This document shows positions 16,129-25,532 of a DNA stretch of 64,000 bases, one piece after another; positions within the stretch are counted from its first letter, which is position 1; each line of letters starts with the position of its first letter. Position numbers and translations under genes: made by a program. Origin of the DNA: a virus. Below the pieces are notes generated by a model, which saw only the letters and a program-made list of their open reading frames with translations, ran no database searches and was not told the DNA's origin. The stretch is taken from the IMG/VR virus record IMGVR_UViG_3300009082_000018, positions 32,001-96,000 of that record. One strand, written 5' to 3'.

Positions 16129-16896
16129 ATGATCAAGCAACCTCCCCCTGTTCGACCTCCGGTGAAAGGCTGGAAACAGGCGCCTGGCGGCAAGATTTTC
16201 ACCGGGGACTGCATCGACATGCTCAAAGAGCTGAGTTCAGAGTCTGTTGATCTGTCAATCTTCGATCCCGCCTACGAAAGCCTGGAGAAGCATCGAGCTG
16301 TCGGATCGAAGACCAGGCTCAAGCACTCCAAGGCCTCCAGCAACGATTGGTTCACGACCTTCCCCAACGCCCGATACGGGGAGCTGTTCCAGCAGCTCTT
16401 CCGAGTGATGAAGCCAGGGACTCACATCTACATGTTCTGCGACGAGGAGACTCGCGACGTGGTGACCTGTGGCTGGTCTCCTCAATCTCCGAATGTCAAC
16501 CTCGGTTTCTCACCCATCCTGGCCGCCGGCTTCAAGTACTGGAAGGCTCTCATCTGGGACAAGATGATCGCCGGCATGGGCTATCATTATCGAGCCCAGC
16601 ACGAATTCATCGTTATGGCTGAGAAGATCGTGAGAGTGAACAAGCACCGGCAGCTAAACGATCTAGGACCAGGTGACGTCCTCCAGCATCGTCGCCTCAA
16701 GGGACCGGATTACTACCCGACGGAGAAGCCTCGAGAGTTGATCGAGCTGTTGGTGAAGCAGTCGTCGAATACAGGTGACACGGTGCTTGATATGTTCGCT
16801 GGTTCTGGTGTGGTGGGTCAGGTCTGCCAGGACATCGATCGTCGTTTCATCCTGGGTGACATCGACACCAAAGAGATTCGCCTGAGACTCGTATGA
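16129..16896 (+). CDS. N6-adenine/N4-cytosine DNA methyltransferase (beta class)
   Basis: GDC..L, DPAY (motif IV variant), YPTEKP, VLDMFAGSG (motif I). Confidence 0.88.
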   Translation: MIKQPPPVRPPVKGWKQAPGGKIFTGDCIDMLKELSSESVDLSIFDPAYESLEKHRAVGSKTRLKHSKASSNDWFTTFPNARYGELFQQLFRVMKPGTHIYMFCDEETRDVVTCGWSPQSPNVNLGFSPILAAGFKYWKALIWDKMIAGMGYHYRAQHEFIVMAEKIVRVNKHRQLNDLGPGDVLQHRRLKGPDYYPTEKPRELIELLVKQSSNTGDTVLDMFAGSGVVGQVCQDIDRRFILGDIDTKEIRLRLV

Positions 16897-17366
16897 CCAC
16901 GCTCAAGATCACCTTTGATCCCGATACCAAGTTCTGCCAGCTTCGCTTCGGCTACAATAAGCGATTTGCTGAATTCATGAAAAGTGGGATCACTCCTCTT
17001 TCTTATCGGCGCTGGGTGGCAGACAAGAAGTACTGGGAGGTCCACGTCTCGAAGCTGGCTCGTGTGGTCGTGGTGGCCCGTCGCTACTTCGGTCATGTCG
17101 ATTACTCAGAGCTGCCAGGTGGCCTACAGATCGAGCTGGCCATCAGGATGAGTGCCTTCGATGACGTGGAGGCACCGCCCAAGAGGACGGCTTCTACACC
17201 GCACGATGTGCTCTACCTGCTACCCACTGCGCCAATCGAGGTGGTCAAGGCAGCCTATCGAGCCCTGGCTCTTATTCATCACCCAGATCGGGGCGGTGAC
17301 GAGGAAATCCTGAAGGAGATCAACTCTGCTTACGAAACCATCACTGAGGCGAAAAAAGAGGGTTGA
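16893..17366 (+). CDS. J-domain protein with N-terminal HARP-like domain
   Basis: VKAAYRALA..HHPDRGG....EIN.AY; N-terminal F.Y...F...K......RRW....K.W.V. Confidence 0.8.
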   Translation: MTTLKITFDPDTKFCQLRFGYNKRFAEFMKSGITPLSYRRWVADKKYWEVHVSKLARVVVVARRYFGHVDYSELPGGLQIELAIRMSAFDDVEAPPKRTASTPHDVLYLLPTAPIEVVKAAYRALALIHHPDRGGDEEILKEINSAYETITEAKKEG

Positions 17367-17392
17367 CAAACGACCCGACCTAGTTCAAGGAT
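17363..17392 (+). promoter_or_regulatory. candidate sigma70-type promoter of the leader/tRNA operon
   Basis: Perfect TTGACA at 17363-17368. Weak -10 AAGGAT at 17387-17392 (18-nt spacer); AAGGA could instead be the leader SD. Confidence 0.45.
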
Positions 17393-17397
17393 GAAGA

Positions 17398-17553
17398 ATG
17401 ATGTTCCAAGCCGCAAAACGAACAAAGTCGAGCGCCCGGAGTTGGCGCGGGACGTGTTCGTTTAGCGTGCGCCCAGATCATAGCTCGAGGGAATTGGGTA
17501 CCCTGCAGTCTTACCCGAATACCCTCGAGCCCATTGGAGCGCCAGGCGGCTAG
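17398..17553 (+). CDS. attenuator leader peptide (51 aa, MMFQAAKRTKSSARSWRGTCSFSVRPDHSSRELGTLQSYPNTLEPIGAPGG)
   Basis: ATG ATG at 17398/17401, TAG at 17551-17553. Contains all 20 amino acids; the last codons form the antiterminator strand. Not in the supplied ORF track (<60 aa). Confidence 0.7.
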   Translation: MMFQAAKRTKSSARSWRGTCSFSVRPDHSSRELGTLQSYPNTLEPIGAPGG

Positions 17554-17589
17554 GACTCGAGGAAACATAGGACTCGAGAGGCCGCCTGG
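17542..17589 (+). promoter_or_regulatory. antiterminator helix
   Basis: CCAGGCGGCU (17542-51) pairs with GGCCGCCUGG (17580-89): 9 WC + 1 GU. Inner CUCGAG/CUCGAG pair (17556-61/17573-78). Mutually exclusive with the terminator. Confidence 0.75.
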
Positions 17590-17611
17590 GAAACCAAGCG
17601 GCCTTTTTTTT
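17579..17611 (+). terminator. intrinsic terminator directly upstream of the first tRNA
   Basis: AGGCCGCcUGG-GAAA-CCAaGCGGCCU stem followed by a U-tract to 17611. Confidence 0.9.
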
Positions 17612-17616
17612 GTTCT

Positions 17617-17688
17617 GGGTGGTTCGTCCAACTGGAAGGGCCCCGGGCCGTAACCCCGGCTATCTAGGTTCGACTCCTAGACCACCCA
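17617..17688 (+). tRNA. tRNA-Tyr(GUA), atypical: short variable loop, C33
   Basis: GGGTGGT/ACCACCC acceptor; loop CC-GTA-AC; TTCGACT. Confidence 0.75.
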
Positions 17689-17755
17689 TTGGAGATCGAC
17701 TATGTGCTTGCAGGAATTCATGCACCGCTTGAAACAGAGGCTTGAGTCAGATCAA

Positions 17756-17828
17756 GCCTCCGTGGTGCAGCGGCTAGCACACATGGCTTTTACCCATCGA
17801 GACGCAGGTTCGAGTCCTGCCGGGGGCA
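17756..17828 (+). tRNA. tRNA-Lys(UUU)
   Basis: GCCTCCG/CGGGGGC; loop CT-TTT-AC. Confidence 0.85.
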
Positions 17829-17840
17829 CTGAAGGAAGTC

Positions 17841-17912
17841 GGGCTCGAAGTGTTATGGTTGCACAGCGGACTCTTAATCCGACAAGTGAGGGTTCAACTC
17901 CCTCCGGGCCCA
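17841..17912 (+). tRNA. tRNA-Lys(CUU)
   Basis: GGGCTCG/CGGGCCC; loop CT-CTT-AA. Confidence 0.88.
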
Positions 17913-17923
17913 TTGAGAATTGA

Positions 17924-17995
17924 TCCGGGTTAGCCTAGCGGCAAAGGCAGCGCGCTCTGACCGCGCCATCGAAGGTTCGAGTCCTTCACCCGGAA
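17924..17995 (+). tRNA. tRNA-Gln(CUG)
   Basis: TCCGGGT/ACCCGGA; loop CT-CTG-AC. Confidence 0.9.
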
Positions 17996-18006
17996 CTGCG
18001 CAACTG

Positions 18007-18025
18007 GCCCTTGACAATTGAATAG
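18007..18025 (+). promoter_or_regulatory. boxA-like antitermination element
   Basis: GCCCTTGACAATTGAATAG resembles rRNA-operon boxA-containing leader/spacer sequences; the embedded TTGACA has no matching -10. Confidence 0.5.
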
Positions 18026-18041
18026 CTGGTCGTGGTCGTTT

Positions 18042-18116
18042 GGTGAGGTCGTCCAATCGGTAGGACACCAGACTGAAAATCTGGGAACGACGGTTCGACT
18101 CCGTCCCTTGCCACCA
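18042..18116 (+). tRNA. tRNA-Phe(GAA), CCA encoded
   Basis: GGTGAGG/CCTTGCC; loop CT-GAA-AA. Confidence 0.92.
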
Positions 18117-18119
18117 CTT

Positions 18120-18190
18120 GGGCCTGTAGCTTGAAGGTCGAGCCACCGGCTCATAACCGGTTGGTGAGTGTTCGATTCACTCCGGGCCTA
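18120..18190 (+). tRNA. tRNA(CAU), probably Ile2 (lysidine type)
   Basis: GGGCCTG/CGGGCCT with C4-G69 and C5-G68; loop CT-CAT-AA. Confidence 0.8.
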
Positions 18191-18194
18191 TTGA

Positions 18195-18265
18195 TCGGGT
18201 GTCGTCTAACGGTAGGGCCGTGGACTTTGGATCCATGAATAGAGGTTCGACTCCTCTCACCCGAA
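18195..18265 (+). tRNA. tRNA-Gln(UUG)
   Basis: TCGGGTG/CACCCGA; loop CT-TTG-GA. Confidence 0.88.
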
Positions 18266-18267
18266 AA

Positions 18268-18340
18268 CGGGGAGTAGGGCATTGGATGACCCGCTTGCTT
18301 TGGGAGCAAGAATAAGCTGGTTCGATTCCAGTCTCCCCGA
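18268..18340 (+). tRNA. tRNA-Pro(UGG)
   Basis: CGGGGAG/CTCCCCG; loop TT-TGG-GA. Confidence 0.88.
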
Positions 18341-18351
18341 CTGATCTTCAT

Positions 18352-18426
18352 TCCAGAGTAGCTCAAAGGTGGAGCGGCGCCCTGTTAAGGCGATGGCTGG
18401 GGGTTCGAGTCCCTCCTCTGGAGCCA
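18352..18426 (+). tRNA. tRNA-Asn(GUU), CCA encoded
   Basis: TCCAGAG/CTCTGGA, G73; loop CT-GTT-AA. Confidence 0.92.
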
Positions 18427-18438
18427 GTAAAGTTGATC

Positions 18439-18510
18439 CGCCTCGTGGCTCAGTGGTCCGAGCAGTCGGCCGATAACCGACAGGCGAGAGTTCGATTCTC
18501 TCCGAGGCGA
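18439..18510 (+). tRNA. tRNA-Ile(GAU), C33
   Basis: CGCCTCG/CGAGGCG; loop CC-GAT-AA. Confidence 0.87.
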
Positions 18511-18522
18511 AAAGAAGATCAT

Positions 18523-18595
18523 GGCGGACGAAGCCAAACGGTGCGGCGCCTGACTGTGGATCAGGTTCTAGGGGGTTCGACTCCCCTCGTTCGCC
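18523..18595 (+). tRNA. tRNA-His(GUG)
   Basis: G-1/C73; GCGGACG/CGTTCGC; loop CT-GTG-GA. Confidence 0.88.
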
Positions 18596-18696
18596 CTCGC
18601 ACATGTTATGCTCCTGCGCAGGTCTACCAGAGCGGGCCAGATCGCCCTTGAATGGGCGTGGAGGGCGGCGCAGGCGGGCCAGGGCGGGGAGCGCTT

Positions 18697-18768
18697 GGGG
18701 ACGTAGTGATAGCGGGAGCACACGGCGTTCGCAACGCTGAAGTGAGGGTTCGACTCCCTCCGTCTCCA
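18697..18768 (+). tRNA. tRNA-Ala(CGC)
   Basis: G3.U70; loop TT-CGC-AA. Confidence 0.88.
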
Positions 18769-18774
18769 CTCTCT

Positions 18775-18845
18775 GGGCTCATAGTGAAATGGGATCACGC
18801 AGCCTCGGCAAGGCTGAATCCCGGGTTCAACTCCCGGTGGGTCCA
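18775..18845 (+). tRNA. tRNA-Ala(GGC), C33
   Basis: G3.U70; loop TC-GGC-AA. Confidence 0.87.
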
Positions 18846-18850
18846 CTCTT

Positions 18851-18933
18851 GGAGGGTACTGAGGAATGGTCCTCAACATGGTCCGAACCCATGGGCGGCC
18901 GAAAGACCGGGCGTTCGATTCGTCTACCCTCCG
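18851..18933 (+). tRNA. tRNA-Ser(CGA), C33
   Basis: GGAGGGT/ACCCTCC, G73; long variable arm; loop TC-CGA-AC. Confidence 0.85.
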
Positions 18934-18961
18934 CTGATTGTTGATCTGAAAATTGTACCAT

Positions 18962-19032
18962 GGACGCGGAAGCTGTCGGATGGCTGACCGGCTGTCTACC
19001 GGTTGAAGAGGGTTCAACTCCCTTCGCGTCCG
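18962..19032 (+). tRNA. tRNA-Asp(GUC)
   Basis: GGACGCG/CGCGTCC, G73; loop CT-GTC-TA (U37). Confidence 0.83.
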
Positions 19033-19033
19033 C

Positions 19034-19107
19034 CGCAGGGTTGAGGAGAGGTCTACCTCGCCTGGCTCATAACCAGGAGCACGTTGGTTCAAATCCAACC
19101 CCTGCTA
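19034..19107 (+). tRNA. tRNA(CAU), initiator fMet-like
   Basis: C1xU72 mismatch, CGCAGGG start; loop CT-CAT-AA; only two of the three usual anticodon-stem GC pairs. Confidence 0.78.
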
Positions 19108-19109
19108 GC

Positions 19110-19181
19110 GCGGTTGAGGTGTTTGTGGTTGCACGCGGCGTTGCCAACGCTGAAGACAGGGTTCGACTCCCTGCAGCCGCA
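19110..19181 (+). tRNA. tRNA-Gly(GCC)
   Basis: GCGGTTG/CAGCCGC; loop TT-GCC-AA. Confidence 0.87.
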
Positions 19182-19183
19182 AC

Positions 19184-19256
19184 GCCGGAGGTCGAGGGTT
19201 CAAATCCCTCCAGGCTCCCGCAAGGGACCTGTAGCTCAGTCAGGTAGAGCACCGGC
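19184..19256 (+). ncRNA. free-standing circularly permuted tRNA-like RNA (YrlA-type effector domain without Ro stem)
   Basis: GCCGG, AGGTC, T arm (GAGGG TTCAAAT CCCTC), acceptor closed by a GCAA loop, TA, D arm (GCTC...GAGC), A, CCGGC. Confidence 0.8.
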
Positions 19257-19260
19257 TTCT

Positions 19261-19345
19261 GGAAGGTGACCCGTAATGGTACGGGAGCTGGTTGCTAACC
19301 AGTCAGGGGGTAACGCCCCAGCAGGTTCGATTCCTGCACCTTCCG
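19261..19345 (+). tRNA. tRNA-Ser(GCU)
   Basis: GGAAGGT/ACCTTCC; long variable arm; loop TT-GCT-AA. Confidence 0.88.
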
Positions 19346-19352
19346 CCGGATT

Positions 19353-19436
19353 GGAGAGCGAGAAGCAGGGTGCGCAACTGCGTTGGAAGCGCAGGAGGGT
19401 TGAAAGGCCCGCTGGGTTCGATTCCCAGGCTCTCCG
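19353..19436 (+). tRNA. tRNA-Ser(GGA)
   Basis: GGAGAGC/GCTCTCC; long variable arm; loop TT-GGA-AG; weak D arm. Confidence 0.82.
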
Positions 19437-19529
19437 CTAGATGAGTCGACTGACACGGAGACGGCAGCTGATCCCGGTCCCCAAGGGCGTCTTACGGCTG
19501 ACGGGCTGTCAGAGCACGACTCATCGCAT

Positions 19530-19601
19530 GCGGGTGAGATGTTAACGGTTGCATGTCAGTCTTCCAAACTGAATGACGGAGTTCAACTCTCCGCACCCGC
19601 A
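19530..19601 (+). tRNA. tRNA-Gly(UCC)
   Basis: GCGGGTG/CACCCGC; loop CT-TCC-AA. Confidence 0.88.
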
Positions 19602-19615
19602 CCGTATAGTTGATC

Positions 19616-19694
19616 CGGGATGTAGCTCAGCCAGGGAGAGCGCTCGCTTCGGGAGCGAGAGGTTTCGTGGGTTCGAACCCCACCATCCCGACCA
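19616..19694 (+). tRNA. tRNA-Pro(CGG), CCA encoded
   Basis: CGGGATG/CATCCCG; loop TT-CGG-GA. Confidence 0.92.
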
Positions 19695-19696
19695 AT

Positions 19697-19770
19697 GCCA
19701 AGGTAGCCCAACAGGAAGTGGCACACGCCTCAGGCGCGTGACAGTGAGGGTTCGAATCCCTTCCTTGGCA
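19697..19770 (+). tRNA. tRNA-Leu(CAG), short variable loop
   Basis: GCCAAGG/CCTTGGC, A73; loop CT-CAG-GC. Confidence 0.85.
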
Positions 19771-19775
19771 TCTTC

Positions 19776-19847
19776 GCCGCCAAAGCGTAAAGGGTGACGC
19801 GCCGGCTTCGTACACCGGAGAACCCAGTTCAACTCTGGGTGGCGGCT
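19776..19847 (+). tRNA. tRNA-Thr(CGU)
   Basis: GCCGCCA/TGGCGGC; loop TT-CGT-AC. Confidence 0.84.
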
Positions 19848-19849
19848 CT

Positions 19850-19982
19850 GGGTGGACCGACAGAGGTTGGATTATCCATGCTAAGGACGAGGTCGCGGGT
19901 TCGAATCCCGTCGGGCTCCTTCGGGGGCCCGTGGCTCAGCGGTAGAGCGCGTAAAACTCCAGCTTCAACCCCTTGTTCACCC
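19850..19982 (+). ncRNA. YrlA-type Y RNA (Ro60-binding stem plus permuted tRNA domain)
   Basis: GGGUGGAC-C(bulge)-GA / UU-GUUCACCC helix; second stem AGGUUGGA/UCCAGCUU; T arm, acceptor closed by a UUCG loop, D arm in permuted order. Confidence 0.88.
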
Positions 19983-19986
19983 TACT

Positions 19987-20057
19987 GCCGGATGATGACT
20001 CCTGGGGAGTCAGCGCACTTGTAAGGCGCCAGGGCGGTTCGACTCCGACATCCGGCT
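19987..20057 (+). tRNA. tRNA-Thr(UGU), atypical D arm
   Basis: GCCGGAT/ATCCGGC; loop CT-TGT-AA; D region can form the 7-bp stem TGACTCC/GGAGTCA. Confidence 0.75.
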
Positions 20058-20069
20058 CTGATCTGAAAT

Positions 20070-20141
20070 GGCCTTGTCTGCTAACGGTAGGCAACCTGGT
20101 TCTCACCCAGGAAACGATGGGTTCAACTCCCTCCAAGGTCA
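20070..20141 (+). tRNA. tRNA-Glu(CUC), bulged T stem
   Basis: GGCCTTG/CAAGGTC; loop TT-CTC-AC. Confidence 0.84.
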
Positions 20142-20146
20142 CTGAC

Positions 20147-20218
20147 GGCCCCATCTGCTAACGGTAGGCACCGTGGTTTTCACCCACGCAACGGCGGGTT
20201 CAACTCCCCCTGGGGTCA
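20147..20218 (+). tRNA. tRNA-Glu(UUC), bulged T stem
   Basis: GGCCCCA/TGGGGTC; loop TT-TTC-AC. Confidence 0.84.
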
Positions 20219-20222
20219 CTGA

Positions 20223-20295
20223 GGGCGCTTCGTCTAGCGGCAAGGACCCCTGCTCGACACGCAGGTGATCGCCGGTTCGAGTCCGGCAGTGCCCA
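20223..20295 (+). tRNA. tRNA-Val(GAC), C33
   Basis: GGGCGCT/AGTGCCC; loop TC-GAC-AC. Confidence 0.87.
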
Positions 20296-20299
20296 CTTC

Positions 20300-20371
20300 G
20301 GGGAGTTGGTGAAACTGGGATCACACGGCCCTTGCACGGCTGGATCAGGGGTTCAAATCCCCTACTCTCCA
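20300..20371 (+). tRNA. tRNA-Ala(UGC)
   Basis: G3.U70; loop CT-TGC-AC. Confidence 0.9.
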
Positions 20372-20437
20372 CTACCTGCACAGGTCATTGCCGATATGAC
20401 TAGTCTGTCAGAAGGGATGGTCTGTGCGGGGTCGATT

Positions 20438-20510
20438 GCCGCCAAAGTCCACGTGGTCGGGACGCCTGCTTGGTACGCAGGAGGGCAGAGTTCGATTCTC
20501 TGTGGCGGCT
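20438..20510 (+). tRNA. tRNA-Thr(GGU)
   Basis: GCCGCCA/TGGCGGC; loop TT-GGT-AC. Confidence 0.86.
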
Positions 20511-20568
20511 CCGCTGATTATCAGCATTTCACTTATGAAGATCACTGATAATCACTGATGAGACTGAT

Positions 20569-20639
20569 GGGGTTGAGGCTGAGGTAGCCGGACGGTCTCC
20601 AAAACCGTCGTCGAGGGGGTTCGATTCCCTCCAACCCTG
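20569..20639 (+). tRNA. tRNA-Trp(CCA)
   Basis: GGGGTTG/CAACCCT, G73; loop CT-CCA-AA. Confidence 0.85.
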
Positions 20640-20644
20640 CTGAT

Positions 20645-20715
20645 GAGTCCGTGTCCGAGAGGCGAGGTACCTGGCTGCAACCCAGGTCACGGGGGTTCAA
20701 ATCCCTCCGGACTCT
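20645..20715 (+). tRNA. tRNA-Cys(GCA)
   Basis: GAGTCCG/CGGACTC, U73; loop CT-GCA-AC. Confidence 0.88.
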
Positions 20716-20720
20716 CTGAT

Positions 20721-20796
20721 GCACCCGTGGTCCAAAGGATGGGCACCGGTCCTCTAAACCGGATCCATGCTGGTTCGAGTCCAGCCGGGTGTGCCA
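20721..20796 (+). tRNA. tRNA-Arg(UCU), C33, CCA encoded
   Basis: GCACCCG/CGGGTGT; loop CC-TCT-AA. Confidence 0.88.
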
Positions 20797-20797
20797 A

Positions 20798-20870
20798 GGT
20801 CCCGTGGTCTAAAGGATGGGCACCTGTTTCCTAAACAGGATCAATGCAGGTTCGAGTCCTGCCGGGATCA
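20798..20870 (+). tRNA. tRNA-Arg(CCU)
   Basis: GGTCCCG/CGGGATC; loop TT-CCT-AA. Confidence 0.88.
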
Positions 20871-20874
20871 CTGA

Positions 20875-20948
20875 GCTGCGATAGTGTAGGGGACTCTGCA
20901 CGGTGCTCTCCGAAAGCACAGGTCTGGGCTCGACTCCCAGTCGCAGCA
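20875..20948 (+). tRNA. tRNA-Arg(CCG), C54
   Basis: GCTGCGA/TCGCAGC; loop CT-CCG-AA; T loop CTCGACT. Confidence 0.82.
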
Positions 20949-20950
20949 TT

Positions 20951-21023
20951 GGGCGGTTCTCCTAGCGGAATGGAACCTGACCTACACTCAGGAATAATGG
21001 GGGTTCAACTCCCTCACCGCCCA
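20951..21023 (+). tRNA. tRNA-Val(UAC), C33
   Basis: GGGCGGT/ACCGCCC; loop CC-TAC-AC. Confidence 0.83.
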
Positions 21024-21027
21024 TCAT

Positions 21028-21099
21028 CTGCCCATGGTCTAAAGGAAGGGCCCCTGACTACGGATCAGGTGCATGCAGGTTCGAGTCCTGCTGGGCAGG
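21028..21099 (+). tRNA. tRNA-Arg(ACG)
   Basis: CTGCCCA/TGGGCAG; loop CT-ACG-GA. Confidence 0.88.
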
Positions 21100-21105
21100 C
21101 TACAC

Positions 21106-21180
21106 GCCGGGGTGGCGCAAATGGAAGATCGCTCCAGACTTAGGATCTGGCTGTTGAGGGTTCGAATCCCTTCCCCGGTA
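21106..21180 (+). tRNA. tRNA-Leu(UAG), short variable loop
   Basis: GCCGGGG/CCCCGGT; loop CT-TAG-GA. Confidence 0.86.
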
Positions 21181-21183
21181 CTT

Positions 21184-21257
21184 GGCAGCAGGGAGGAGAG
21201 GGACTCCTCACCGCTCTCATAAAACGGGAATTGCTGGTTCGATCCCAGCTGCTGCCA
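21184..21257 (+). tRNA. tRNA(CAU), probably elongator Met
   Basis: GGCAGCA/TGCTGCC fully paired; loop CT-CAT-AA. Confidence 0.75.
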
Positions 21258-21260
21258 CGA

Positions 21261-21333
21261 GCCCTCGTAGCCCAAGAGGAAGCGGCATCGCCTTAAAAGC
21301 GATCAAGTGGGGGTTCGAGTCCCTCCGGGGGCA
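21261..21333 (+). tRNA. tRNA-Leu(UAA), short variable loop
   Basis: GCCCTCG/CGGGGGC; loop CT-TAA-AA. Confidence 0.85.
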
Positions 21334-21336
21334 CAC

Positions 21337-21409
21337 CGAGGAGTAGGGCATTGGATGACCCGCTCGGATGGGGTCCGAGAGCAAGCTGGTTCGATTCCAG
21401 TCTCCTCGA
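21337..21409 (+). tRNA. tRNA-Pro(GGG)
   Basis: CGAGGAG/CTCCTCG; loop AT-GGG-GT; D and T arms identical to Pro(UGG). Confidence 0.85.
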
Positions 21410-21418
21410 TCTTGATAT

Positions 21419-21492
21419 GCCAGGGTAGCCCAATCGGTAGTGGCACCAGCCCGAGGCGCTGGACAGTGTGGGTTCGAATCCCATCCCTGGTA
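21419..21492 (+). tRNA. tRNA-Leu(GAG), C33, short variable loop
   Basis: GCCAGGG/CCCTGGT; loop CC-GAG-GC. Confidence 0.85.
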
Positions 21493-21496
21493 CTAT

Positions 21497-21571
21497 GGCG
21501 CGGTAGCCCAACTGGTAGGAGGCACCGGCCTCAAGCTCCGGACAGTGAGGGTTCGAATCCCTCTCGCGCTA
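21497..21571 (+). tRNA. tRNA-Leu(CAA), short variable loop
   Basis: GGCGCGG/TCGCGCT; loop CT-CAA-GC. Confidence 0.84.
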
Positions 21572-21611
21572 CGACTTGTGAAAACGACCACGATCTGCTA
21601 TTGGTGCAATC

Positions 21612-22121
21612 ATGCAAACGCTCGTACTCGACCAAGGCTACCAGCCGATCAACACCGTCCCTTGGACCAAGGCGATGGGATACATCGCCCGTGGCAAGGT
21701 CGACGTGCTGGAGGAGTACGAGCAGGAGGTCCACTTCAACATGGGCATGCCGGCGGTGGTGAGGCTCAACCATCGCATCAGTGCCAGCAAGAAGAGGATC
21801 AAGTTCTCTCGTCAGAATGTGCTGGCGAGGGACAAGTTCAGTTGCCAGTACTGCGGCGCCCACGGACGTGACGTGGTTCTAACCTTCGATCACATCATCC
21901 CCAGGTCTCGGGGTGGTCGAACAGAGTGGGAGAACATCGTCATGGCCTGCCAGGAGTGCAATGCACGAAAGGCTGACCTGACGCTGAGAGAATCGGGAAT
22001 GCGTCTGCGGACGCAGCCTGTTCGACCGACGTGGGTGCCCACTTTCAACGTCGCTCTGCGGGATGCTGGCAACATCCCACCAGAGTGGCGGAACTACTGG
22101 ACAACAGAGCTGCAGCCGTAG
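21612..22121 (+). CDS. HNH endonuclease (McrA-like family)
   Basis: TLVLD.GY.P; SR.NVL.RD...CQYCG; T.DHIIPRSRGG...WEN.V.AC..CN..KA. Confidence 0.92.
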   Translation: MQTLVLDQGYQPINTVPWTKAMGYIARGKVDVLEEYEQEVHFNMGMPAVVRLNHRISASKKRIKFSRQNVLARDKFSCQYCGAHGRDVVLTFDHIIPRSRGGRTEWENIVMACQECNARKADLTLRESGMRLRTQPVRPTWVPTFNVALRDAGNIPPEWRNYWTTELQP

Positions 22122-22184
22122 AACCTTGTCCGGAATACTTCCTTGTCCTCTACGTAGCGGACAGGGAGGAAAACCGGACAACTT

Positions 22185-22267
22185 GGAGGGTGCCGCCGGT
22201 TGGTTGGCAACACGGTTTGAACCCGTGGGTGGTCGCAAGGCTAGGGGTTCGACTCCTCCACCCTCCG
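22185..22267 (+). tRNA. tRNA-Ser(UGA)
   Basis: GGAGGGT/ACCCTCC, G73; long variable arm with GCAA loop; loop TT-TGA-AC. Confidence 0.85.
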
Positions 22268-22310
22268 CTCTTCCCGCCAAATCCTTCATGATTATTTTTG
22301 ATTCTTTTGC

Positions 22311-22338
22311 TTGACAAAGAATCATTCATAGGGATAAT
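22311..22338 (+). promoter_or_regulatory. sigma70-type promoter for the Y RNA-Ro60 unit
   Basis: TTGACA-N16-GATAAT with an AT-rich upstream tract; predicted start coincides with the 5' end of the first Y RNA. Confidence 0.7.
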
Positions 22339-22343
22339 AGGAT

Positions 22344-22432
22344 CATGAGGGACCGACTGAGTTAGGTTATCAAACTCTCACTTTGATTGGGGCCTCTGGC
22401 CCCGCTCCTAGCTCAACAACTTGTTCCTCATG
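22344..22432 (+). ncRNA. short Y RNA (Ro60-binding stem, no tRNA domain)
   Basis: CAUGAGGGAC-C-GA / UU-GUUCCUCAUG; second stem UGAGUUAGG/CCUAGCUCA; followed by U6. Confidence 0.82.
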
Positions 22433-22453
22433 TTTTTTGATCTGAAAAGGAGA

Positions 22454-22586
22454 ATTGAGGGACCGACGATTTGGGTTACCTTGGACCTGTTGGGGCTGGT
22501 TCAATTCCAGCTCGGTCACTTAGGTGATCGATAGTGTAGAGGCAGCACAGCAGGAGTGTTCCCAGATCAACAACTTGTTCCTCAAT
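22454..22586 (+). ncRNA. YrlA-type Y RNA (Ro60-binding stem plus permuted tRNA domain)
   Basis: AUUGAGGGAC-C-GA / UU-GUUCCUCAAU; GAUUUGGG/CCCAGAUC; T arm GCUGG UUCAAUU CCAGC, closed acceptor, D arm GUGU...GCAC. Confidence 0.88.
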
Positions 22587-22599
22587 CTTTATTGGCTGT

Positions 22600-22670
22600 G
22601 AGAGTGGACCGCTGATCTTGGGTTACCTTCTTTGGTGAACAACCCCAGGGTCGATCTTTTGTTCGCTCTC
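22600..22670 (+). ncRNA. short Y RNA-like element in the Ro60 leader
   Basis: GAGAGUGGAC-C-G / U-GUUCGCUCUC; GAUCUUGGG/CCCAGGGUC; shares GGUUACC with the other copies. Confidence 0.75.
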
Positions 22671-22696
22671 CTTTTGTTCGCCCATGGAGGTGGACC

Positions 22697-24298
22697 GTGC
22701 AGAACTTCGGTGGCTCGTTCTCGACTGTTAGCACTCCGCAGACCCAGCCGACCCCGGGCAAGAACGAAATCAAGATGCGCTCCGGTGGCTACGGCTTCGC
22801 CGTGGATGACTGGGTGCGCCTCAACCGGTTTTTGATCATGGGCTCGGAGGGCGGAACCTACTACGCCTCGGAACGCGAGATGACCAAGGTCGCCAGCGAT
22901 GCGGCCATGAGGCTGGTCAGACAGAATGGTGTGGCGGTGGTCAACCACGTCGTCGAGATCAGCCAGTCCGGTCGTGCGTTCAAGAACGATCCGGCGCTGT
23001 GGGTTCTGGCCATGGCATCGCAGCTCGGTGATCAGGCTACCAAAGAGCTGGCGTACAAGTCGCTGCCGTTGGTGGCACGCATCTCGACCCACCTGTTCCA
23101 CTGGCTGCAGTACACCAAGGCCTTCGGGCACCAGGGAGGCAACGGCTTCAAGCGGGCAGTGGCACGATGGTACCTGGAGCAGACACCGGCTCATCTGGCT
23201 CACCAGGTCGTGAAGTATCAGGCTCGTGATGGGTGGTCGCACCTGGACGCTCTTCGGATCGGTCACCCGACTCCGTCGGATGAGCTGTTCCAGGCAATCT
23301 TCCACTACGTCAAGCACGGCAGGACCAAAGATCTGTCGGCGGTTGCGGCGGTTCCGGAAGAGCTGACGCTCATCTGGGCGTGGGAGAAGATCAAAGAGGC
23401 AAAGAACGCCGATGAGGTCGCCAATCTGATCAGTGCTTTCAAGTTGCCGCACGAGTGCGTGCCGAACGAGTGGAAAGACCAGCAGGGGGTCTGGGGTGCG
23501 TTGTTGAACTCGATGGCACCGCACGCCATGCTGCGGAACCTGGGCAAGATGACCTCGGTGGGTCTGCTAGAGGGCAAGTCGGCGGCGGTGCAGAAGGTCG
23601 TGGACACGCTGACGGACATGGAGCGTCTGAAGAAGGCCAGGATGCACCCGATGTCGGTGCTGACTGCGTTGGCGGTCTACCGGACGGGCCGTGGCATCAA
23701 GGGCTCGCTGAGCTGGAACCCGAACCGTCGGGTGATCGACGCGCTCGATGAGGCCTTCTACCTGTCCTTCGGGACAGTGACGCCGACGGGCAAGCGGCTG
23801 CTTCTGGCCCTGGACGTATCAGGGTCGATGGGATCGCCGTGCGCTGGTTCTCCGCTGACCTGCAGGGAGGCGACGGCAGCCATGGCGATGGTCACGGCAC
23901 GGACGGAAGAGGACTACGAGATCGTCGGCTTCTGCGACAGCCTGAAGACGCTGAGCATCTCGCCGAAGCAGCGTCTGGATGACGTCGTGGAGTCGATCTC
24001 CCATCTGTCCTTCGGAGGCACGGACTGCAGCTTGCCGTTCCGTTGGGCGCAGTCCAAGCAGCAGAAGTTCGACGGTGTTATCACCTACACCGACAATGAG
24101 AGTTGGGGAGGTCCAGTGAAGGTTCACCAGGCAATGCAGCAGTATCGCCAGAAGATGGGCACCACAACCAAGGGAGCCTTCGTGGCCTTTGCGGCCAATG
24201 AGTACTCGGTGGCAGACCCGGACGACGCGGGTCAGATGAACTTCGTGGGCCTGGACGCCAACCTGCCACAGGCGCTCTCCAGCTTCATTGGAGAGTAG
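22697..24298 (+). CDS. rsr: Ro60/TROVE domain RNA-binding protein (Rsr ortholog)
   Basis: GGY.F....W.RL.RFLI.GSEGGTYY; KYQ.R.GWSH.D.LR; A.LRNLGKMT; HP..VL.A...Y..G.G; VWA DVSGSM and YTDNE.W; GGAGG SD. Confidence 0.95.
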   Translation: MQNFGGSFSTVSTPQTQPTPGKNEIKMRSGGYGFAVDDWVRLNRFLIMGSEGGTYYASEREMTKVASDAAMRLVRQNGVAVVNHVVEISQSGRAFKNDPALWVLAMASQLGDQATKELAYKSLPLVARISTHLFHWLQYTKAFGHQGGNGFKRAVARWYLEQTPAHLAHQVVKYQARDGWSHLDALRIGHPTPSDELFQAIFHYVKHGRTKDLSAVAAVPEELTLIWAWEKIKEAKNADEVANLISAFKLPHECVPNEWKDQQGVWGALLNSMAPHAMLRNLGKMTSVGLLEGKSAAVQKVVDTLTDMERLKKARMHPMSVLTALAVYRTGRGIKGSLSWNPNRRVIDALDEAFYLSFGTVTPTGKRLLLALDVSGSMGSPCAGSPLTCREATAAMAMVTARTEEDYEIVGFCDSLKTLSISPKQRLDDVVESISHLSFGGTDCSLPFRWAQSKQQKFDGVITYTDNESWGGPVKVHQAMQQYRQKMGTTTKGAFVAFAANEYSVADPDDAGQMNFVGLDANLPQALSSFIGE

Positions 24299-24301
24299 CT
24301 C

Positions 24302-24511
24302 ATGCCCCGCCGCCCAGAAGACCAACCGCAAACCCCACCTGAGGTCTTCACCGTCCGCCTGCAAGGTCAGGATGCGGCGGACTTCCGTCGTCTGCAATCA
24401 GCAGCTGCAGCTGAGGTCCCTCCAGGAGCCCGGCAGACTCGTCACAGCTTTGCTGTCTGGTTGCTGAAATTGGGGATGAAAGCGATCGAGACGGTCAAGC
24501 GGAAGCGCTAG
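24302..24511 (+). CDS. small basic protein, possible ribbon-helix-helix DNA binder
   Basis: VFTVRL beta strand followed by two predicted helices; starts 3 nt after the rsr stop. Confidence 0.5.
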   Translation: MPRRPEDQPQTPPEVFTVRLQGQDAADFRRLQSAAAAEVPPGARQTRHSFAVWLLKLGMKAIETVKRKR

Positions 24512-24634
24512 CTGTTGCTGCTGCCTAGGTCTCCAGCAGGTCCCACACCATCCCTAGAGATGACGTTTCCGTGCTCGTCCACGTCCACGTTCAGTGCTGG
24601 CAGCTCACCACTGCTGATGTAGTTTCCAATTCTC

Positions 24635-24904
24635 CTATGGTTTCTTTTCTGGCTCTCCCGATGGTGGTTCTGGCTCCTTTGGAGTCGGCACAGGCTTGGA
24701 TACCTGAAAGACCTTGCACCGGACGGCTAGGAACAGCTCTCCTTCCTGCACACCAGTGATCCGCATTTTGGAATCGTTGTCAAGCTCGATCCTATAGCTC
24801 TCCTGGTGCAGCATCTGATGGAAGATCGCCAGCAGCTGCTCAGACATCTGCTTCGGAGATAGGTTTCGTTTACCTGAACGAGGACGTTTTTGTTGTGCAG
24901 ACAT
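24635..24904 (-). CDS. hypothetical protein
   Basis: Continues the minus-strand run after the kinase. Confidence 0.4.
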   Translation of the reverse strand: MSAQQKRPRSGKRNLSPKQMSEQLLAIFHQMLHQESYRIELDNDSKMRITGVQEGELFLAVRCKVFQVSKPVPTPKEPEPPSGEPEKKP

Positions 24905-25532
24905 CTTTGATAGTCGCCGAAATCGCGTCCCAGTCCGGAACGGCAGTGGTTGGATCCCAGATCAGTCTGGAAACCTTTACAGCGTGTCCCCAAGGCATCA
25001 AGCCAGACTCAGCTTCTTGCAGGAGCTTCTGGTAGCCTTCGTTGAGTCGCTCGAGGTAGTCGATAGCCACAGCTGCCTCAGCCCCACGGTTCCGCTGTCG
25101 CATACGTTCGTATGCCGTCTTCGGCTGAACGTCAAGGAAGATCAGTTTGGTGGGTGGAAGAAGCTCGTGGCACATGACGTTGTAGCAGTACTCGTAGGTA
25201 TCCCAGTCGAGCTGGTTGATGTTACCCATTGCAGTGTGCAGGCTGGCGAAGACTCGGTCACCGCTGAGAGAGCGATCGAGAATCGCGCCGGCAAAGGGCC
25301 CAACTCCCAGAGAGATGAGGGCAGCCATTTTCTGCATTGCGTACCTTCGATGCAAAAGGTAGATCTGCATTCCAAAGGCATAGGTCTTTGGGTCCTGGTA
25401 GAACTTCTCCAGGTATGGGTTGGTGTCGACTGGCTCTTCGATGACGGAGAAGTTGAGCCGCTTTCCGACTTCGCGGGAGAACGTGGTTTTTCCACAGCCA
25501 ATGATTCCTTCTACCCAGAGTAGAGGCTTCAT
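24870..25532 (-). CDS. deoxynucleoside kinase (dNK/dGK family)
   Basis: VEGIIGCGKTT, EEPV..NPYL..FY.DP, DRS...D.VF, R.R..E. Confidence 0.92.
   Translation of the reverse strand: MKPLLWVEGIIGCGKTTFSREVGKRLNFSVIEEPVDTNPYLEKFYQDPKTYAFGMQIYLLHRRYAMQKMAALISLGVGPFAGAILDRSLSGDRVFASLHTAMGNINQLDWDTYEYCYNVMCHELLPPTKLIFLDVQPKTAYERMRQRNRGAEAAVAIDYLERLNEGYQKLLQEAESGLMPWGHAVKVSRLIWDPTTAVPDWDAISATIKDVCTTKTSSFR

Follow-up and report, generated by a model that had tools for sequence, protein, structure and literature searches.

A short leader ORF holding all 20 amino acids as a candidate transcription attenuator of a phage tRNA array

Leader-peptide attenuators include trpL, hisL, pheL and leuL of E. coli and Salmonella, and the multivalent thrL and ilvL. 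Genes of the translation apparatus are also controlled by sensing of tRNA charging, as in the pheST attenuator with its pheM leader and in T-box riboswitches; pheM senses one amino acid, and the T-box RNA binds one uncharged tRNA directly, without translation. To our knowledge, neither the pheST attenuator nor the T-box controls tRNA genes. Why phages carry tRNA genes, and when these are used, has been debated for decades. Recent studies show that tRNAs of phage origin can stand in for those of the host once defence nucleases have destroyed them. Here we describe a short leader open reading frame (ORF) and a terminator that lie directly 5' of a tRNA array in a lake phage, within a 64,000-nucleotide (nt) stretch (the window) of the 109.6-kb IMG/VR virus record IMGVR_UViG_3300009082_000018. 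Comparison of this leader with its homologues makes it likely that it is a ribosome-mediated (leader-peptide) transcription attenuator gating the whole phage tRNA array, with an ORF built to hold every amino acid. The locus is best read as attenuation of the trp type, broadened so that a lack of any aminoacyl-tRNA is sensed, and the tRNA set of the phage is probably switched on when ribosomes slow for want of any charged tRNA. The two features at issue are:

17398 to 17553, + strand: leader ORF of 51 sense codons plus TAG, with 41 distinct codons and 20 of 20 amino acids (codon count, homologues)
17616 to 22268, + strand: tRNA array of 43 co-oriented genes, opening Tyr, Lys, Lys, Gln (ARAGORN, Rfam)

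The locus resembles attenuators of the trpL type in its short leader ORF, in the intrinsic terminator and U run that immediately precede the regulated genes, and in placing the 5' strand of an antiterminator at the end of the ORF, where a ribosome at the stop codon is predicted to cause termination and one that has stalled to permit read-through; element A, further upstream, is a candidate for the role of region 1. It differs from them in being phage-borne, in a longer ORF (43-54 codons) with two internal hairpins, and in that the regulated genes are tRNAs and not biosynthetic enzymes. Whereas classical leaders are enriched for one or a few amino acids, this one holds all 20 and 41 of the 61 codons; regulatory codons of the kind that attenuators use are thus found in a generalised form, with no run of a single amino acid. 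As in pheST and the T-box, low charged tRNA would lead to antitermination and to more product for the translation apparatus. Unlike the T-box systems, the leader gives no T-box match in Rfam.

Impaired translation, rather than one metabolite, is also sensed by antibiotic-responsive leader-ORF attenuators such as the vmlR and msrD/mef leaders, in which the terminator 3' of a small leader ORF is overcome when a ribosome stalls on that ORF; these attenuators respond to drug-stalled ribosomes at particular peptide motifs, whereas here a complete amino-acid repertoire is conserved (PMC9226507, PMC4335068). The trn L-array of Anabaena sp. PCC 7120 has 26 tRNA genes and is silent until translation is impaired (PMC8421152), and its promoter is controlled through direct repeats bound by the repressor TrcR (PMC10272220); neither paper mentions a leader, attenuator or terminator. 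Both systems comprise a long accessory tRNA array that is conditional under translational stress (predicted here) and has RNA-repair genes nearby, namely rtcB in Anabaena and Ro60 with Y-like RNAs here, and they differ in that control is at the promoter in Anabaena and by a leader switch, as we propose, in the phage. Phage tRNAs have also been studied as a counter-defence against tRNA-cleaving systems, which gives a phage reason to bring tRNAs of its own as replacements once those of the host are destroyed, and the present array opens with Tyr and Lys, species targeted by tRNA-cleaving nucleases; those studies appear to concern the function of tRNAs, not the control of their expression, and none appears to describe a sensor (PMC10264068, PMC11555353, PMC11464382). 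In full-text literature searches, no case of tRNA genes controlled by a leader peptide or by attenuation was found, nor any published description of how phage tRNA arrays are regulated.

Repertoire of the leader ORF and its homologues

The original prediction, made from the letters of the window, was of an ORF with 41 distinct codons covering all 20 amino acids. A recount confirmed both figures, with 51 codons from the ATG at 17398 and 50 from a second ATG at 17401 (also 41 distinct), ending at the TAG at 17551-17553, and the list of codon families proved exact (both Lys, Gln, Glu and Phe codons; four each of Gly, Arg and Ser; three each of Pro, Thr, Ala and Leu). The random expectation of about 34 ± 2 distinct codons, which had been worked out by hand, was computed as 34.3 ± 2.3 for uniform use of 61 codons, giving P(>=41)=0.003, and a first-order Markov null derived from the leader itself gave 32.6 ± 2.5 (P=1.8e-4). 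Among the 171 window ORFs of 45-60 codons, the leader ORF ranks first by codon diversity, and none of the others contains 20 amino acids. Read in its other two frames, this DNA has 35 and 37 distinct triplets, encoding 15 and 17 kinds of amino acid; the excess of codon diversity is confined to the ORF frame. The leader codons call on 35 of the 40 non-CAU tRNAs of the array, compared with 27.1 ± 2.1 for random ORFs (P=5e-5), and in the window clade the leader would thus cover almost every isoacceptor. A candidate ribosome binding site precedes the ORF:

17388 to 17392, + strand: Shine-Dalgarno-like AAGGA, 5 nt 5' of the ATG at 17398 (sequence)

AGGA is found at similar spacing in the nearest relative (L002), and AGGAG-type sites lie at the same distance before other genes of this phage.

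That nearest relative was found with the DnaJ-domain protein encoded 5' of the leader as query. Its flanking proteins are 69-87% identical to those of the window, and its array has 42 tRNAs in nearly the same order. An extra gene is present in L002 between the DnaJ gene and the leader, indicating that leader and array move as one module. The two leaders align with a mean column identity of 81%; start, frame and stop position are conserved, the stop changing from TAG to TGA, and all three indels within the ORF are in frame (9, 3 and 3 nt), while a 2-nt indel lies right after the stop. In L002 the ORF has 54 codons, of which 44 are distinct, and encodes 20 amino acids. Although no more than 30 aligned codons match in place, the two repertoires have 40 codons in common (union 45), and 12 of the 13 window codons lost in place recur elsewhere in L002; for example, TTC and CTC are swapped between codons 3 and 47, and CAT, GAA, ATT, GCA, GCG, CCC and CCG have moved. 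When the same positions were replaced by random codons at equal Hamming distance, the expected overlap was 32.7 ± 1.5, so that the observed 40 has P<5e-5, and the same test in frames +1 and +2 gave values at the null (28 vs 27.7 and 27 vs 27.1). Because the excess overlap is found in the ORF frame only, the sequence appears to be read as codons, of which the set is conserved and not the order.

Sixteen codons are missing from both the window and L002 leaders. In the genes of the phage these account for 23.8% of codons, the preferred ATC, GAC, AAC, CAC and GTC among them, which sets the leader ORF apart from the codon usage of the phage. The leader picks AAT, GAT, CAT, ATT and TGT where phage genes prefer AAC, GAC, CAC, ATC and TGC, and L002 keeps this preference even where the codon has moved. 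Codons read by wobble might raise the sensitivity of a sensor. A near copy of the L002 leader was obtained by a pattern scan of metagenomes (L006; Ga0315274_10221469); the array behind it has only 9 tRNAs, either because it is a deletion variant or because the assembly collapsed between tRNA genes.

More distant relatives were reached through the HNH endonuclease gene embedded in the array (21612-22121, preceding the last tRNA, a tRNA-Ser), which is syntenic in ten related viral contigs (L011-L022; 44-87% identity) and was therefore the best handle for this purpose. Alignment of the endonuclease provided ten more viral contigs, and in six of them (L013, L014, L016, L017, L018 and L022; HNH 46-48% identical) the arrays open Tyr-Lys-Lys-Gln, the tRNA-Tyr of L018 being recognised by eye only and not called by ARAGORN. 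Each of the six has a homologous ORF of 43-48 codons just 5' of the array, followed by a terminator with a GAAA loop. Their peptides are 11-26% identical to that of the window, and identities among all aligned peptides of the family range from 11 to 74%. Homologous leaders were thus found in seven further viral or metagenome contigs, with ORFs of 43-54 codons that all contain 20 amino acids; 3300035701 and 3300032173 are among the IMG samples from which the related contigs derive. For a single distant leader the probability of holding all 20 is 1.5-7% with uniform codons and 0.2-3% with its own base composition, and the property is seen in the ORF frame only, the remaining frames of the distant leaders having 12-19 kinds.

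The probability that the complete set was retained along all seven branches was estimated with residues that are identical in place held fixed and the others redrawn, giving 6e-8 with codon-uniform draws and 3e-9 with the pooled composition of the leaders. Residues present as a single copy shift their alignment column among members (His has six placements, Ile eight, Lys five, Asp four and Trp three), and between L022 and a database peptide (P0006) Ile and Val are gone from every old position, each being regained at a new one. In the window leader, a Trp codon is located at 17443-17445 and a His codon at 17479-17481. Profile searches of protein databases provided six further peptides of 44-52 residues (P0005, P0006, P0009, P0010, P0011 and P0012), each with 20 kinds; P0003 is the L006 peptide and is not counted among them. 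Four of these six were found after the property had been established, and serve as an out-of-sample check. All 15 known members, including the window, contain all 20 amino acids. A copy in L015 is decayed, with at most 19 kinds of amino acid and a weak U tract.

Codon diversity is significantly high in the window, L002, L013, L017 and L018. Judged across the homologues, the property conserved throughout the family is the presence of all 20 amino acids, rather than extreme codon diversity, and these comparisons show selection on the amino-acid and codon repertoire of the ORF and not on its peptide sequence.

Mutually exclusive pairings at the end of the ORF

The RNA features of the leader, including its upstream edge, are:

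17354 to 17376, + strand: A-run and small hairpin (GGGUUG / CGACCC) with TTGACA at 17363-17368, a candidate -35 box (sequence, homologues)
17405 to 17414, + strand: element A, UCC.AGCCGC, which pairs with 17546-17555; candidate anti-antiterminator, the equivalent of region 1 (minimum free energy fold, partition function)
17416 to 17463, + strand: hairpin P1 inside the ORF, AAACGAACA / UGUUCGUUU, with two inner helices (folding)
17483 to 17530, + strand: hairpin P2 inside the ORF, GCUCGAGGG (17483-17491) / CCCUCGAGC (17522-17530), extended by UUGGGUA / UACCCGA (folding)
17542 to 17551, + strand: element B, the 5' strand of the antiterminator, CCAGGCGGCU, made of the last three sense codons and the first base of the stop (pairing, covariation)
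17551 to 17553, + strand: stop codon TAG, overlapping the last base of B (sequence)
17556 to 17578, + strand: hairpin P3, CUCGAG / CUCGAG, inside the antiterminator helix; also a direct repeat of AGGACUCGAG (folding)
17579 to 17611, + strand: intrinsic terminator, with C at 17580-17589, a GAAA loop, D at 17594-17603 and U8 at 17604-17611 (folding, covariation)

The final codons of the ORF had been predicted to be complementary to the 5' arm of the terminator, and B was found to pair at 10 of 10 positions (9 Watson-Crick and 1 G-U) with C, GGCCGCCUGG. The terminator stem (17579-17604) has 10 pairs and one C.A mismatch, because of which a simple terminator scanner missed the hairpin. Its U8 ends at 17611, leaving 4 nt before tRNA-Tyr at 17616, and not 5 nt as first stated. 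Since C is common to both helices, the antiterminator (B:C) and the terminator (C:D) are mutually exclusive; in both the window and L002, B:C is fully paired (10/10) while C:D has one internal mismatch, the position of which differs between the two.

Both helices are conserved across the eight DNA homologues. Of the 10 consensus pairs of the terminator, 4 show compensatory double changes, and of the 7 in the antiterminator consensus, 3 are compensatory. A G/A column of C covaries with C/U in both B and D, as expected for two alternative pairings of one strand. A stop codon, TGA or TAG, is in B or within 6 nt of it in 8/8 homologues: four members have it within B, as GGGUGA; in the window and L002 it shares the final base of B, and in L016 and L022 it comes up to 6 nt later. 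Frame and stop position, on whose retention the original prediction depended, are thus kept by leaders of 43-54 codons. Taken over these alignments, conservation of the ORF frame with a stop in or next to B is shown, as is covariation of two mutually exclusive pairings, B:C and C:D.

When the RNA was folded with a ribosome footprint on the stop codon, as the original prediction had suggested, the terminator formed with a probability of 0.90 in the window and of 0.83-1.00 across 8/8 leaders; this result alone is used as folding evidence for the switch. The A:B pairing is predicted in the free RNA of the window, where it sequesters B, and the sequence of A is kept in L002, where A:B is not predicted at equilibrium. 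A hairpin inside the ORF had also been noted; P2 is present and longer than described, its extension reaching 17494-17518, and in L002 it is kept with G-C to G-U changes and with an A.A mismatch turned into a U-A pair. P1 shows one compensatory change (A-U to C-G) relative to L002. P3 is conserved in L002, and a different small hairpin occupies the same place in distant homologues. The two copies of AGGACUCGAG were considered as a repressor site, as at the Anabaena trn promoter, and rejected, since the repeat lacks promoter context and another hairpin replaces it in distant homologues.

The element at 17354-17376 overlaps the TGA stop of the DnaJ-domain gene and forms the upstream edge of the leader-array module. 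Its stem is retained in L002 with a G-U to A-U change. A TTGACA-like hexamer is found 30-65 nt 5' of the ATG in 8/8 leaders, and in the six distant ones it stands directly behind a terminator composed of an A-run, a stem and a T-run, an arrangement that points to leader and array being a separate transcription unit. On the minus strand, 17354-17376 reads as a hairpin with a T run behind it, and so as a terminator facing the array; no minus-strand gene that would use it was found.

In the mechanism that we propose, transcription would start a few tens of nucleotides upstream of the ORF, near the conserved TTGACA, and a ribosome would load at the AAGGA/ATG and trail the polymerase. If all codons were decoded promptly, the ribosome would reach the stop (17551) and cover B while C and D are made, the terminator would form, and transcription would end at U8, 4 nt before tRNA-Tyr. 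A stall at any codon lacking its charged tRNA would leave B free to pair with C, no terminator would form, and polymerase would read through into the 43 tRNA genes. In untranslated window RNA, A would sequester B, and the default would also be termination. The biological sense of such a switch would be that the phage supplies its own tRNAs when the host pool fails, possibly through amino-acid starvation, host shut-off or tRNA-cleaving defence systems. Translation of the ORF, the direction of the switch and its trigger (a tRNA nuclease or starvation) are what we infer from this arrangement.

Weighing the attenuator against other readings

Several observations weigh against the attenuator as described, or narrow it. 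No convincing -10 box was found at the leader, either by a sigma-70 scan of the window or by a looser scan of the eight leaders, which picked up TTGACA-18-AAGGAT alone in the window and no candidate that was consistent among the homologues. In the six distant homologues the U tracts are interrupted, and no clear Shine-Dalgarno motif precedes the ATG. Folding of the free RNA predicts termination in six homologues and antitermination in L002 and L017, where the antiterminator is the default fold and A:B has no equilibrium support. With a ribosome stalled upstream, the number of codon positions at which the equilibrium fold contains the antiterminator ranges among homologues from 0 to just 47, with almost none in L016 and L018, and given this inconsistency the proposal that a stall at any codon causes read-through would depend on a co-transcriptional kinetics argument. 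The claim that the leader samples nearly every isoacceptor stands for the 20 amino acids, family-wide, and for the 35 array tRNAs called on in the window; it does not extend to Val-GAC, Leu-UAG, Leu-UAA, Arg-UCU and Ser-UGA, or to the presumed Ile2 tRNA, the window leader having no ATA codon, and codon diversity is extreme in five of the eight DNA copies only, being not raised in L014, L016 and L022. A search for similar leaders before other tRNA arrays had been suggested, and they were found before six distant arrays that open Tyr-Lys-Lys-Gln and not before the arrays of Gordonia phage Sixama, Mycobacterium phage Myrna, L019 or L020. The ORFs 5' of the Sixama and Myrna arrays have ordinary or low codon diversity, and the leader is thus not general to phage arrays.

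What the attenuator would report on is a narrower question, on which we lean, with less assurance than for attenuation itself, toward a universal sensor of aminoacyl-tRNA supply. The ORF would be a one-of-each sampler of the code (every member has 20 amino acids, and some 40 codons are fixed in the window clade), the loss of any single charged tRNA would induce the full replacement set, and the element would be a counter-defence sensor and the first leader-peptide control of tRNA genes. A rather improbable alternative is that the ORF is translated and the switch works, and that it reports the overall availability or speed of ribosomes, such as would change with host shut-off, ribosome-targeting toxins or growth rate, the full amino-acid set being a by-product of an "average" message. 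This would fit the robust formation of the terminator with a ribosome at the stop in all eight homologues, the three homologues in which codon diversity is unraised and the array tRNAs that go unsampled, and the only published regulated tRNA array, the Anabaena trn operon, answers to general translational stress (PMC8421152). A gauge of speed does not need every amino acid, yet 15/15 members keep 20, with lost single-copy residues regained elsewhere, and the window clade holds a near-identical set of 40 codons despite positional turnover.

If the leader were instead an untranslated structured RNA with an incidental ORF, for example a processing or insulator element, a riboswitch binding a protein or tRNA, or a small RNA with its own terminator, one would expect its folding far better than shuffled sequence (z = -5.5 for the window leader; second value z = -4.4), conservation that reaches past the ORF, and the structure-preserving changes in P1, P2, terminator and antiterminator; the window and L002 also have a second open frame. 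We regard this as very unlikely, since the full amino-acid set and the retention of the codon repertoire are found in the ORF frame alone, with the other frames at the null, since indels inside the ORF are all multiples of three and the next one after it is not, and since start and stop positions are kept despite peptide identities as low as 11-26%. Furthermore, an Rfam cmscan of 16500-25000 with all families at E<=1 gave no match in 17363-17615, T-box (RF00230) included. Least probable of all is a functional micro-protein of about 50 residues with the hairpin merely as its terminator: gene callers predict the ORF in several assemblies and the distant group shares a core motif (Y-P-A...W-C-A-L...G), but the ratio of nonsynonymous to synonymous substitution rates (dN/dS) between members is 0.35-1.8, identity falls as noted, codon use departs from that of phage genes, the peptide has no match in Pfam, and the complete set in every member, the regain of residues elsewhere and the stop within a covarying antiterminator would go unexplained.

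Genomic setting and significance

The window encodes a terminase, a helicase, an endolysin and a DNA methyltransferase. On the + strand the DnaJ-domain gene ends at 17366 and is followed by a 250-nt gap and then the array, which begins with the same gene order in relatives and also includes YrlA-like RNAs besides the HNH gene. Two slots in the array that are not occupied by tRNAs (19186-19254 and 19864-19974) give sub-threshold matches to Rfam YrlA, scoring 39 and 37 bits where the gathering score is 69. A permuted "tmRNA*" (transfer-messenger RNA) called by ARAGORN at 18024-18644 covers eight tRNA genes and is almost certainly spurious. In the related contig L015 (7105-7513 and 9702-9778), the array includes a gene for tmRNA, with the tag ANSNSYVPAAMAA, as well as a tRNA whose anticodon, UUA, would decode the stop codon UAA.

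Located 3' of the array are a near-consensus sigma-70 promoter (22311-22338, TTGACA-16-GATAAT) and an orthologue of Ro60 (22697-24298; Pfam TROVE and vWA_Ro60). Three repeated units whose ends are GGGACCGAC...UUGUUC are present between promoter and gene, and 22311-24298 looks like a phage Ro60 / Y-RNA module right behind the tRNA array. In Sixama (L008, 498-2322) a gene annotated as Ro-like is directly 5' of the tRNA array and is followed by a terminator and a promoter, and in Myrna (L009, 3400-5199) the gene of gp141, similar in size to the Ro-like gene of Sixama and possibly Ro-like itself, is likewise directly 5' of the array. Linkage of Ro60 and tRNA arrays may recur across unrelated phages. 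Searches with the Ro60 protein gave no viral relatives, and blastn of the leader region against GenBank phages gave no match. Scans of viral contigs with the exact pattern and with the peptide pattern matched only the relative contig that was already known. A match from a genome scan, in a metagenome-assembled genome of Hyphomicrobium, is at the end of a gene with no tRNAs nearby and was dismissed as chance, and a DnaJ homologue on a 205-kb phage (L003/G001) was set aside as irrelevant because only one tRNA is present.

The selective signature of the leader, in which composition is conserved and sequence is free, is an unusual one, and the element could double as a compact biosensor of translational stress. 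If the proposed reading is true, textbook amino-acid-specific attenuation would be extended to a leader that monitors the code as a whole, and at least one phage lineage would use its tRNA set as an inducible rescue kit, and not as a constitutive supplement to codon usage.

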